Counted from the first letter of the stretch, positions 58-60,573 are shown. The stretch: 64,000 nucleotides of DNA from Betaproteobacteria bacterium SG8_41 (GCA_001303585.1 LJTT01000002.1:5837-69836), one strand, 5' to 3'. Numbers and translations: made by a program. Notes: generated by a model from the sequence alone, not told the origin.

Positions 58-92
58 AGGTTCCCGGTTCAAGGTTCAACGTTCAGGGTTCG
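58..92. repeat. tandem heptamer array (GGTTCAA-type, 5 units)
   Basis: Read directly: ggttccc ggttcaa ggttcaa cgttcag ggttcgc. The same unit family occurs at 26426-26600 and 34459-34554. Confidence 0.8.
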
Positions 93-285
93 CAGGCGAG
101 GCCCGGTCCAAGAGGCGCAATCTTAACAGCCAAGGGGCTATGGGAAAAACGACATCTCAGAATATGGAATCCGGGTGCGCCTTTGAGCCGCCGGGCGGGG
201 ATCCTCGTTCCAGATTCTGGATGAGCTTCGGCCAGCGTTCTTTTTTTGCCCTAGACAACGCCTGTTTCGCTGCCTGGATGCGCGG

Positions 286-2409
286 CTAACGCAGCACGAT
301 CAGGGCATCGGCGGCGACCACGCCCCGCCCCTGAGACCGCACCAGCAAGGGATTGATGTCCATCTCGAGAAGGCGCCCGCGCAGGTGCCAGGCCAGCTCC
401 GAGACCCGTGCAAGCGTGGCAACCAGCGCGTCGATGTCGCGCGGCGCGCTGCCGCGCACGCCATCGAAGACCGCCCGCCCCCTCAACTCTTCAATCATGG
501 CGCGCGCGTCCTCCAGACCGAACGGCGCCACGCGATAGCTCGCGTCCCCGAGCGTCTCCACAAGAATGCCGCCGAGGCCGAGCACCACGACTGGACCGAA
601 CACCGCGTCGTTGACCACTCCGATGATCGTTTCCAGCCCATCGGTGATCATTTCCGAGGCGAGCGCGCCGGCAATTCGGGCTTCAGGAGCGGCGCGCCGC
701 GCGTTGTTCAAGATCTCCGAGAGCGCGGCCTTAAGCGCCGGCCCATCGCGCACATTCAGGCGCACCGCGCCGATGTCGGTCTTGTGCGCGATGTCGCGAG
801 AGACGATCTTGACCGCCACCGGGAATGCGATGTCCGCGGGCACCCCCTCCATCGCGTCGACCGCGATGAAGCAGTCGCGCGTCACGGGCACGCCCGCCGC
901 AGCGAGGATCTTCTTGCTCTCGTTCTCATCCAGCGTCGCGGCGCCAGGAGGCAATGCCGGCGCCTTCACGCTGCGCGCGCCGTGCGCAGCGCTCCCGTGT
1001 TCGCGGCGCGCGAGCGCCGCCGAATAATCGGCAAGCCTGGCCATCGCCACGGCAGCTCGCTTCGGGGATGGCAGGACCGGAATGCCAGCCGCGCGCATGA
1101 GGCCCAGGCCCTCGGGCGCAATCTCCTCGGACATTCCGGAGAAGACAACGATGGGCTTCTCCGACGAGGACGCCGCTTTGCCCAGCAGTTCGCCGCCCAC
1201 CTGCAATTGGTTGCGCCCGGCAGCGGCGAACATGACCGCAAGCTGGTCGATTCCCGGATCGGCGAGGACCGCGTCGAACGCCTGCTGAAAATCGAGTCCG
1301 GGCACAGGCCGCGGATAGCCGGCCGTGTAGTCGATGGGATTCTTGAGCGAGCTGAGCGGCGGGAGACAGCGCCTCAGGACGTTCAATGTGTTCTCGGCAA
1401 GGGGCGGCATGGAAAGCCGCAGCTCGTCCGCCCTGTCGGCGAACATGGCCGCCGCGCCACCCGAGCCCCCCATCACCGCCACCCTGCGGCCCCCGGGCAA
1501 CCGGCCTCCAACCAGACACAGCGCAACATCGGCTGCCTCATCGAGATCGTGCACCTCGATCACGCCGCACTGCCGGAAGACGGCGCGATAGACGTCGTAG
1601 TCGCCCGTGAGATTGGCGGTATGCGACGCGGCTGCGCGCCTGCCTTGCTCCGTGTTTCCGGCCTTCAGGACGATGAGCGGTTTGCGCGCGGCAAGTGCGC
1701 GCCGCGCCGCGCGCATGAGCGCGTGCCCGTCGCTCACGCCCTCGAGGTAAGCAAGGATCACCCGCGTTTCCGCGTCATCGACATACGCCTCTATCAGCTC
1801 CGGCGCGGTGACGTCGGTCTCGTTGCCGCTCGTGACAACATGACGAAAACCCACGCCGGCTGCGGCGCAGCGCACGAGCAATGTCGTGCCGAGGCTCGCG
1901 CTTTGAAGCACCGCGGACACCGGGCCGGCTGGCAGGAGCGGGGGGCGCGTGAGGCTGCCCCATGCCGCGTAGACGCGCGCCGGAATGTTGACGAGACCGA
2001 GGCAGTTCGGCCCGATGATACGCACACCTCCTTTGCGCGCGGCGGAAAGCATCGCTTCCTCTGTCTTCTGGCCATCCGCCCCGGCTTCCCGGAAGCCGCC
2101 GCCCAGCACGACGGCAAAGGCGATACCGCGATCCCCGCACGCGCCGATGATGCCGGGGACCTGCGCCGCCGGCAGTGCAATCACCGCCACGTCGCATTCG
2201 CCGCGGACTTCGGCGACAGTCGCACAGCACGGATGGCCGGCGATTTCCGGATACTTGGGATTGACCGGGTAGATGCCGCCCTTGAAGCCGTGCTGCCGGA
2301 GCGCTGCGATCGTTTGTCCCCCGGGACGCGCCGGCTCGGCGCTGGCGCCAACGATCGCGATGCCGCGCGGATTGAAAAGCCGCTCGAACGAGCTCACTCC
2401 ACGGGCCAT
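286..2409 (-). CDS. ADP-forming acyl-CoA synthetase (fused CoA-binding and ATP-grasp domains)
   Basis: 707-aa ORF. The N-terminus FNPRGIAIVGASAEP...YPVNPKY...DVAVIALPA is the CoA-binding Rossmann signature of NDP-forming acyl-CoA synthetases, and the C-terminal half is ATP-grasp-like. Confidence 0.8.
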   Translation of the reverse strand: MARGVSSFERLFNPRGIAIVGASAEPARPGGQTIAALRQHGFKGGIYPVNPKYPEIAGHPCCATVAEVRGECDVAVIALPAAQVPGIIGACGDRGIAFAVVLGGGFREAGADGQKTEEAMLSAARKGGVRIIGPNCLGLVNIPARVYAAWGSLTRPPLLPAGPVSAVLQSASLGTTLLVRCAAAGVGFRHVVTSGNETDVTAPELIEAYVDDAETRVILAYLEGVSDGHALMRAARRALAARKPLIVLKAGNTEQGRRAAASHTANLTGDYDVYRAVFRQCGVIEVHDLDEAADVALCLVGGRLPGGRRVAVMGGSGGAAAMFADRADELRLSMPPLAENTLNVLRRCLPPLSSLKNPIDYTAGYPRPVPGLDFQQAFDAVLADPGIDQLAVMFAAAGRNQLQVGGELLGKAASSSEKPIVVFSGMSEEIAPEGLGLMRAAGIPVLPSPKRAAVAMARLADYSAALARREHGSAAHGARSVKAPALPPGAATLDENESKKILAAAGVPVTRDCFIAVDAMEGVPADIAFPVAVKIVSRDIAHKTDIGAVRLNVRDGPALKAALSEILNNARRAAPEARIAGALASEMITDGLETIIGVVNDAVFGPVVVLGLGGILVETLGDASYRVAPFGLEDARAMIEELRGRAVFDGVRGSAPRDIDALVATLARVSELAWHLRGRLLEMDINPLLVRSQGRGVVAADALIVLR

Positions 2410-59895: not shown

Positions 59896-60461
59896 TGCGC
59901 CAACTTGCGATCGCCGTGCTTCTGATCCTGCCCCTGCTGCATGGCTGCACCGCCGCTTTGATTGGCGGCGCGGCTGCCGGCGGCTACATGGTGGCGGAGG
60001 ACCGCCGCACCATGGGCACAATGACCGAGGACGAGGGCATCGAGATCAAGGCCGCGAGCCGTATCGGCAATCGCTTCAAGGAGGCCGTCCACATCAACGT
60101 CACGAGCTACAACCGGATGGTGCTCCTCACCGGGGAAGTCCCCGATGCAGCCACGAAGGCCGGAGTCGAGCGCATCGCGCGCGCGGTCGAGAACGTGCGC
60201 GGCGTCTACAACGAGCTCGCGATAGCCGGCGTGAGCTCCTACACCGTGCGATCGAACGATTCGCTCATCACCTCCAAGGTCAAGGGCCGCTTTGTCGACG
60301 CCGGGAAATTTCACGCGCTGCACGTCAAGGTCGTGACGGAGAACAGCATCGTCTACCTGATGGGGCTGGTGAAGAAGCAGGAGGCGCAGGACGCGACGGA
60401 GATCGCGCGTACCACGAGCGGCGTGCAAAGGGTCGTGCGGGTGTTCGAATATATCGACTGA
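59895..60461 (+). CDS. BON-domain outer-membrane lipoprotein (DolP/YraP-like)
   Basis: Lipobox LLHGC, followed by two BON-like repeats (NVTSYNRMVLLTGEV and HVKVVTENSIVYLMGLV). Confidence 0.85.
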   Translation: MRQLAIAVLLILPLLHGCTAALIGGAAAGGYMVAEDRRTMGTMTEDEGIEIKAASRIGNRFKEAVHINVTSYNRMVLLTGEVPDAATKAGVERIARAVENVRGVYNELAIAGVSSYTVRSNDSLITSKVKGRFVDAGKFHALHVKVVTENSIVYLMGLVKKQEAQDATEIARTTSGVQRVVRVFEYID

Positions 60462-60480
60462 GGAGGCGAATTGGATTGTT

Positions 60481-60573
60481 ATGGGTGATGGGCGATGGGC
60501 GATGGGCGATGACCGAACGCCGTTGGTTTAGACGCGGTTGCCGTTCACGATTCCCGATTTCCCATTCCCTGTT
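60481..60573. repeat. hairpin with GGGCGAT / GGGAAAT repeat arms between convergent genes
   Basis: atgggtgatgggcgatgggcgatgggcgatgacc faces cacgattcccgatttcccattccctg. Confidence 0.8.

Follow-up and report, generated by a model that had tools for sequence, protein, structure and literature searches.

Tandem repeats built of 7-nt units have been known in bacteria since 1990, and their over-representation was shown in 2007. To our knowledge, there is no accepted mechanism or function for them. Here we describe such repeats in a 64,000-nucleotide stretch of Betaproteobacteria bacterium SG8_41 (GCA_001303585.1, LJTT01000002.1:5837-69836; hereafter the window), where the gaps between genes carry hairpins whose arms are tandem arrays of short units. 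The class has already been described; what is present here is a many-unit variant of it, with a free choice of unit sequence but constraints on period, pairing, chirality and context. In Xanthomonas, GGGAATC heptamers occur in about four copies, with 70-75 convergent G-first pairs per genome and a strong intergenic bias; the G-rich strand lies just past stop codons and the C-rich strand just before open reading frames (ORFs), the repeats are depleted between divergent genes, and their length varies among related genomes and pathovars while the single-or-paired type is kept (Rehm et al. 2015, PMC4692102). In Geobacter metallireducens, 3-5 tandem units of 7-9 nt make up four classes of sites, mostly in opposite-strand pairs, and the paired sites, which lie between genes such as proB-proA, were interpreted as sites for a regulator (integration host factor, IHF, or HU) (Aklujkar et al. 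2009, PMC2700814). Inverted pairs of heptamer arrays are hence not unprecedented. Other reported heptamer repeats are the cyanobacterial short tandemly repeated repetitive (STRR) sequences of Calothrix and Nostoc, the TAACTGA repeats (MacGregor 2015, PMC4679880) and the Nostoc recF/recO heptamers (bioRxiv 10.1101/2022.06.06.494920). Paired arrays are few in Nostoc (PMC4692102), and the TAACTGA repeats include one indirect repeat among 169 sets (PMC4679880).

The closest match to the elements studied here is found in Xanthomonas, with which they have in common the approximately four copies, the G-first pairs, the intergenic bias and the depletion from divergent gaps. However, Xanthomonas uses essentially one unit (GGGAATC or GGGGA(C/T)T, with four G-tracts), whereas the present lineage has more than 50, mostly without G-tracts, and therefore the quadruplex rationale proposed for Xanthomonas does not carry over. 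Also unlike in Xanthomonas, the units change at a fixed locus with covariation of the arms, and periods of 8-10 nt occur as well. Like Geobacter, one genome contains several unit types of 7-10 nt paired on opposite strands, and the pilC-pilD element has a unit, ATCCTGA, that agrees with the Geobacter class MTYCTGA, compared by its published description. In Geobacter, each class is a multicopy family with its own consensus, whereas the units here are largely locus-specific and apparently derived from local sequence. With the cyanobacterial heptamers are shared the diversity of tandem unit types, the intergenic location, often beside start codons, and the variable copy number; the cyanobacterial arrays are mostly single direct ones, unlike the pairs seen here, and those genomes are AT-richer and belong to a different phylum. 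The repetitive extragenic palindromic (REP) sequences and bacterial interspersed mosaic elements (BIME) of Enterobacteria and Pseudomonas are imperfect palindromes in gene gaps, mainly past gene 3' ends, and are transcribed as stem-loops. REPs have one genome-wide consensus and no internal tandem repetition, and are mobilised by REP-associated tyrosine transposases (RAYT). None of these three REP features was seen in the window and the fetched loci, whose elements have no common consensus, and an earlier description of the window made from its sequence alone (the sequence-only reading) rightly set them apart from classical REPs. By analogy, the elements most plausibly work like REP/BIME stem-loops.

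The window has a G+C content of 62-67% and a gene order of beta/gamma-proteobacterial type (rplS-trmD-rimM-rpsP, ffh, pilC-pilD-coaE-zapD-yacG, NUDIX/ThiE, DUF815, argJ, secA, lpxC, ftsZ-to-mraZ cell-wall cluster), and also contains an RNase P RNA gene, rsmI and lpoA-yraN-SIS-BON. The closest ZapD matches (72-87% identity) come only from uncultured "Betaproteobacteria/Burkholderiales bacterium" metagenome-assembled genomes (MAGs) from groundwater, soil and sediment. Two samples were compared with the window. The same-species sample comprises about 20 independent assemblies retrieved by exact-protein match, including the closed 3.32-Mb genome CP070703.1; strains were compared through assemblies with identical ZapD, 61-aa protein, BON or amidohydrolase. 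The cross-species sample comprises 80 syntenic loci of other species (1.25 Mb in total), of which L001-L034, with ZapD at least about 78% identical, form the close-relative set. The same arrays recur in independent NCBI, ENA, JGI and Logan assemblies, and an assembly artefact was therefore rejected.

Arrays were called with Tandem Repeats Finder (TRF) and the period-7 count was compared with 40 dinucleotide shuffles. The window gives 19 period-7 rows versus 2.9±1.8 (maximum 9) in the shuffled sequences, other periods being less enriched, so that the enrichment over a composition-matched null model is established. Seventeen of these 19 arrays are intergenic, i.e. inside 4,928 bases or 7.7% of the window. 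With a stricter detector, nearly all arrays have period 7, and 5 of 7 are in intergenic bases. An array is present in about 12 of the 36 gaps of at least 30 nt, and clear hairpins with tandem 7-, 8- or 10-nt arm units in six or seven gaps. Hairpin z-scores range from -2.5 to -6 in seven gaps. When whole gaps were folded, z was at or below -3, on one or both strands, for 6725-6816, 7429-7673, 11778-11857, 26420-26607, 28473-28596 and 34447-34573; z-scores were without significance for 60459-60582, 18360-18500 and 56690-56800. The stems are long, with a mismatch or wobble every 3-7 pairs. Units of 7, 8, 9 and 10 nt, arranged as inverted pairs, occur both within one genome and across relatives. 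Two families recur in the 64 kb, the GTTCAAG type at 3 gaps and the CGCAAAG type at 2, but most units are locus-specific. The heptamer-repeat hairpins announced by the sequence-only reading are therefore real, most of their coordinates being recovered by inspection of the sequence and by TRF. Its unit size of 7-8 nt was too narrow, as shown by the overlooked 10-nt units at 7514-7540 and 7640-7666. It had further placed many of the sites between convergent genes or at operon ends; in fact 9 of the 12 array gaps are co-directional.

To characterize the architecture of the elements, we used the intergenic arrays of the window and of L001-L034 with a period of 6-11 nt (n=83, of which 63 are heptamers). 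Period-7 arrays are concentrated in these close relatives, with almost none in the rest of the 80 loci; the trait is thus restricted to a single lineage of uncultured Burkholderiales. A reverse-complement array lies within 200 nt for 47 of the 83 arrays, versus 17 of 83 in a complement-only control. Copies usually number 3-4, with a median of 3.9 for units with G-tracts and 4.3 for those without. The chirality is pronounced: 19 of the upstream (5') arms are G-rich and 4 C-rich, and for the downstream (3') arms the figures are 24 C-rich and 1 G-rich, so that 43 of the 48 skewed arms obey the rule. In a palindrome the G-first order reads alike on both strands, and any transcript therefore meets the G-rich arm first. 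By gap type, arrays are present in 41 of 241 co-directional, 9 of 45 convergent and 1 of 49 divergent gaps (50 of 286 for the non-divergent gaps together).

In about 20 species, the junction from the pilC stop to the pilD start is occupied by a hairpin that begins 3-8 nt past the stop codon and leaves 0-4 nt to the ATG; over the junctions examined, the distances are 3-8 nt from the stop to the first arm and 0-20 nt from the second arm to the ATG. The unit pair differs between species (GGATTCA/TGAATCC, GGATTGA/TCAATCC, GAGGATT/TCCTCGC, GAGGAGT/ACTCC..., TCAGGGG/CCTGACG, TTTCGGG/CTTGAAA, TTCCGGG/CCGGAAC) and both arms change jointly. When 14 of these gaps were aligned and analyzed with RNAalifold, only one 9-pair register was recovered, with one pair that reads CG in 10 of the sequences and GC in 4; this yield is low because repeats align ambiguously. 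In an alignment-free comparison in which arms were swapped between species, native duplexes had -39.5 kcal/mol versus -30.8 kcal/mol for non-native ones (permutation p ~5e-5). In six close species there is no gap, since the stop of pilC overlaps or abuts the start of pilD (-10 to +9 nt), and the gaps of more distant species are unrelated and non-repetitive. The argJ-DUF815 junction shows the same behaviour, with units of 7, 8 and 9 nt such as CGCAAAGG, CACAAAGGA, CGCCAAGA and GAGTKTT; in about 8 species the gap is 0-11 nt, and orthologues with overlapping or abutting codons (-4 to +2 nt) exist. Since sister species lack the element at both junctions, it is dispensable. The species with a hairpin retain native flanking sequence as the outermost bases of the stem, namely CGGGAT following pilC and GTGGTTTAAGATT preceding DUF815. 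L016 carries a single-copy GTTTCAAG...CTTGAAAC hairpin at the yacG stop, a site of arrays in the window, L001, L005 and L020. These sequences argue for elements that grew in place from local sequence and were not inserted as a fixed mobile element.

At four loci, the length difference between strains whose flanking proteins are identical is an exact multiple of the unit. The lpxC gap measures 120, 127 or 134 nt (one or two AACCTTG units), the BON gap 104 or 118 nt (ATGGGCG x2 versus x4) and the rsmI gap 81, 88 or 108 nt, and in the yacG gap either arm can be expanded (GTTTCAA x14, GGTTCAA at least x25, AACTCGA x10, CGGAACC x5). The common generative process by slippage or duplication that had been suggested from the sequence is supported by these whole-unit differences. 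The short impure arrays of the pilC-pilD, nitroreductase/ffh and argJ-DUF815 gaps keep a constant length and show point changes only. Such dependence of variation on length and purity is classical slippage behaviour. The arrays are variable-number markers at the strain level, and short-read metagenome assemblies break at them: among L081-L092, from independent projects, 8 of the 10 short-read contigs that run towards the yacG array from the zapD side stop within it, as does 1 of 2 (L092) from the other side. Copy numbers of such arrays taken from MAGs are unreliable without long reads. At a larger scale, the lineage constitutes a natural experiment, in which the architecture (period of about 7 nt, about four copies, inverted G-first pairs, a location at gene 3' ends and junctions and not in promoter gaps) is kept and the unit sequence is free. 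This freedom argues against sequence-specific accounts such as a G-quadruplex or a single binding protein, and speaks for pairing, for strand asymmetry and for a mutational process specific to length.

We consider it rather probable that the elements are hypermutable simple-sequence-repeat palindromes, produced in place by slippage and inverted copying, and tolerated or mildly useful as RNA stem-loops. The seed would be a short native sequence or small hairpin beside a stop or start codon, which slipped-strand mispairing would duplicate head-to-tail and which intramolecular template switching at quasi-palindromes would copy in inverted orientation. Template switching at quasi-palindromes is an established mutational route. 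It could also, with or without selection for pairing, keep the arms complementary, unless such selection does so by itself. Ongoing slippage would expand, contract and homogenise the units, long or perfect arrays acting as variable-number repeats. In the transcript, the predicted fold is a long, regularly mismatched stem-loop that extends from one gene's stop to the next gene's start; it would add sequence length and little physical distance between stop and start, and the C-rich arm would be hidden. These two properties are probably the reason why such insertions are tolerated in tightly coupled operons and kept from promoter gaps. That inverted pairs rather than single arrays dominate coupled junctions could likewise be due to the stem keeping the stop near the start. 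With the G-rich arm first, the C-rich arm would be paired as soon as it is synthesised. Rho factor loads on unstructured C-rich, G-poor RNA, and within an operon a C-first order could therefore uncover a site for its loading; such an order would also put purine runs resembling a Shine-Dalgarno (SD) sequence just upstream of start codons. Any positive role, such as mRNA 3'-end protection, processing or tuning of coupling, would be secondary.

Several observations weigh against this explanation. The preference for 7 over 6 or 8 nt is not explained by slippage alone; a suggestion of Mrázek, in the form relayed in PMC4692102, is that it corresponds to the stretch of DNA that the active site of the polymerase holds. 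Slippage is also silent on the reuse of a few unit families at gaps that are unrelated (GTTCAAG at three and CGCAAAG at two in the window, and ATCCTGA in Geobacter as well). The motif AGGA is found 14 times in G-rich units versus 4.6 expected, which hints at sequence constraints beyond pure mutation. The ratio of sense-favoured to antisense-favoured folds is 18:11 in repeat gaps and 17:41 in non-repeat gaps, a weak and inconsistent signal, and in the lpxC gap it is the antisense strand that folds better. Finally, the arrays at 58-92 and 42757-42779 have no partner arm.

A possible, if doubtful, alternative is that the elements are REP-like functional RNA stem-loops, which would protect against 3'-exonucleases, be processed by RNase III/E or allow differential expression within operons, the repeat structure being incidental. 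The location just past stop codons in co-directional and convergent gaps, the depletion in divergent ones, the persistence of a hairpin at the same junction in many species despite unit turnover and the weak shift to sense-strand stability are all in line with such a role. However, the complete absence of the element at the same junctions in sister species and the grossly unbalanced arms tolerated in strains are difficult to reconcile with it, and the sense-strand advantage is inconsistent. It appears rather unlikely that a dedicated molecular process writes heptamer palindromes at gene ends, or that the hairpins are a heritable, reversible rheostat of translational coupling. This possibility is raised because the 7-nt period, the G-first chirality, the four copies and the inverted pairing recur with unrelated units, also in Xanthomonas and Geobacter; the writing process could lie in a 7-nt register of a polymerase, a primase or a repair activity, or in a constraint linked to the ribosome or to Rho.

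A related proposal, unlikely in our opinion, is that of a bridge for translational coupling, in which the stem would bring the stop to the next start and let ribosomes that terminate re-initiate across an expandable spacer, with SD-like G-rich units keeping hold of the 30S subunit and copy number setting the ratio of the two proteins. The elements do lie exactly where orthologues overlap or abut (pilC-pilD and argJ-DUF815), with arms starting and ending close to the stop and start codons, and AGGA is enriched in units of the 5' arm. Against this, elements are also found between convergent genes, and absence of an SD is not specific to hairpins: about two thirds of the genes here have no good SD. 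For the same reason we rejected the notion that genes preceded by a hairpin are specifically devoid of an SD. It is quite unlikely that the arrays are series of sites bound by a protein that recognises DNA or RNA (a global regulator, nucleoid protein, CsrA, S1 or cold-shock proteins). Regular spacing, about four copies, the recurrence of some unit families at unrelated loci and the AGGA/GGA enrichment could be understood in this way, and binding was proposed for Geobacter (PMC2700814) and for the TAACTGA repeats (PMC4679880). However, more than 50 units in one lineage, which change at a fixed locus with covarying arms, indicate pairing and not sequence recognition, and nearly no array is found in the promoter-containing divergent gaps.

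Intrinsic terminators devoid of a U-tract, or mobile elements of the REP or MITE type, are very unlikely. There are stable GC-containing stems after stop codons, some of them in convergent gaps, and the sequence-only reading considered operon ends and terminators; yet most arrays are inside operons, directly upstream of the next start codon, between co-directional and often translationally coupled genes (pilC-pilD, argJ-DUF815). The scan for terminators found no T-run 3' of any array, confirming the absence of U-tracts noticed earlier, while canonical U-tract terminators exist nearby (one behind the M23 peptidase gene at 32826-32798, minus strand, and another after rplS). Neither a consensus nor a target-site duplication is seen, and the outer stem comes from the native flank. 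When the whole window was searched with Rfam 15 at the gathering threshold, the sole match was RNase P RNA and no array was matched; at E<=1, the region 39900-42850 gave no match. REP/BIME were rejected since there is no common consensus and similarity between loci is confined to the repeat unit, and MITEs since the flanks are without duplication and the outermost stem bases are native. No transposase-like genes were found in the gene maps of the 64 kb and the fetched loci. CRISPR arrays were likewise rejected, the units being contiguous without spacers. As for G-quadruplex or i-motif elements, as proposed for the G-rich heptamers of Xanthomonas and Nostoc, the typical four copies and a few arrays that could form quadruplexes (ATGGGCG x4.4 at 60481, TCAGGGG x4 in L032) leave this the least probable reading and one that we reject as a general explanation, because GGG or CCC is present in only 16 of 63 intergenic period-7 units, the other 47 also prefer about four copies, and the commonest units, GTTCAAG and CGCAAAG, are incapable of forming quadruplexes.

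Table. Repeat elements of the window and associated features (positions counted from the first nucleotide of the window)
Position	Strand	Feature	Remarks
58..92	-	GGTTCAA-type array x4.9 (58-91)	directly upstream of minus-strand ATG 52-54; partner arm not found
6732..6816	-	8-nt-unit hairpin, Fumerase_C stop to FAD_binding_2 start	RNA -43.4 kcal/mol, z -3.05; arms CGCAAAG-type 6732-6755 and CTTTGCG-type 6793-6816; TRF row 6792-6815 = CCTTTGCG x3
7514..7666	-	inverted decamer pair, CGCAGATAAA x2.7 at 7514-7540, partner 7640-7666	gap z -5.6/-6.3
11778..11857	-	G-rich (GGTGATG/GGGATGA) arm and C-rich arm between minus-strand genes	z -3.75; loose periodicity
18369..18444	.	GGTGATG x2.3 and TCGGTGTT x2.6, convergent nitroreductase/ffh gap	weak case, invariant among strains
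23541..23637	+	pilC-pilD junction hairpin	z -3.63; 3' arm TCCTGAA x3.7 (23611-23636) ends at pilD ATG; 5' arm degenerate (GGGATTG...GGGGYGC)
26426..26600	.	largest element, convergent yacG/NUDIX-ThiE gap	highly polymorphic between strains; left arm GTTCAAG/TTTCAAG; right arm GAACTTY... then AACTCGA x10.4, CGGAACC x3 (arrays 26429-26592)
28489..28581	-	argJ-DUF815 junction hairpin, CGCAAAG-type 8-10-nt units	z -2.55
34458..34554	-	lpxC to 61-aa gene junction hairpin	copy number strain-variable; arms GTTCAAG x6.6 (34458-34503) versus CTCGGAA/CTTTGAA units (34513-34554); TRF array 34513-34535
40117..40133	.	ACCGTTC x2.4 doublet at murB stop	chance level
42757..42779	-	TCTGCCT x3.3 just past murG stop	partner arm absent
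49524..49554	-	GTGACCG x4.4 inside murE, encoding HRSPVTGHPS in Mur_ligase_C domain	overlooked by the sequence-only reading
56698..56795	-	rsmI-amidohydrolase junction, GGGGAAT-type and TTCCCAT/TTCGCAC-type arms	strain-variable; arrays 56698-56725 and 56757-56795; rsmI stop codon inside array
60481..60573	.	ATGGGCG x4.4 (60481-60511), convergent BON/SnoaL gap	fold not significant; x2 versus x4 among strains; second arm CGATTCC-type, 60547-60573, weakly complementary
15182-15238 / 15288-15344		direct repeats around GGAGCAGGGGCCCC element	
39937-39973 / 40078-40114		direct repeats around GGAGCAGGGGCCCC element	
42490-42600 / 42648-42758		direct repeats around GGAGCAGGGGCCCC element	

Some individual elements deserve comment. 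Among the three sites initially grouped as a GGGATGA/GGTGATG/GGGCGAT type, the array at 60481 stands and 11779-11855 is a good hairpin of loose periodicity, while 18369-18384 amounts to merely 2.3 copies. The doublet at the murB stop, initially listed as a member of the series, is probably outside the family; the ttctgcc repeat after the murG stop was recovered as an array of 3.3 copies. In the nitroreductase/ffh gap, the inner hairpin GTGACTTGGCGAACTCGGCAGGTCAC (18395-18420) shows a compensatory change between subpopulations, from GTGAC/GTCAC to GTGAT/ATCAC (L083/L084); it is an ordinary conserved stem beside weak arrays. The AACTCGA unit of the yacG gap (26506-26578, minus-strand RNA) contains the palindrome TCGA, and in the predicted fold this array pairs with itself and not with the opposite arm. 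Arrays with self-complementary units may expand more freely. The Mur_ligase_C Pfam match of murE, which contains a heptamer array, covers 137 residues for a model of 127 positions, and this suggests an in-frame insertion made of heptamer units. GTGACYR, a relative of the murE unit, forms arrays after secA in L008, L016 and L028. Upstream of argJ, at 35-60 nt, a conserved -10-like box CGATATAAT / GCTATAAT is present in the window (29836-29953) and in the orthologues L003-L033, L064, L066 and L077. This box is probably the argJ promoter, and secA and argJ would then be separate transcription units.

The RNase P RNA (class A, 274 bits; 54446-54977, minus strand) is 532 nt long for a model of 367 positions, with insertions in P12 (about 140 nt) and P3 (24 nt). 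P12 of heterocystous cyanobacteria carries heptamer repeats; none was found in the P12 expansion here. There are no tRNA or tmRNA genes in the window. A distinct conserved element of about 45-55 nt, with the structure GGAGCAGGGGCCCC-variable inner stem-GGGG(A)TGCGAC, is present in the window, on its minus strand, at 15236-15285, 40026-40078 and 42592-42650 and once in L032 (8196-8250), the exact 14-mer occurring 3 times in the window. It forms a hairpin whose inner stem varies between copies with compensating changes, and it has no Rfam match. The three window copies are flanked by local direct repeats of 57, 37 and 111 nt that are 84-93% identical and duplicate the 5' end of the downstream gene. 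For ddl and murC, the duplicated piece holds the start codon and the first 13-15 codons, creating decoy upstream ORFs. The L032 copy is without such a duplication, and the duplications of the window are identical among strains of the same species.

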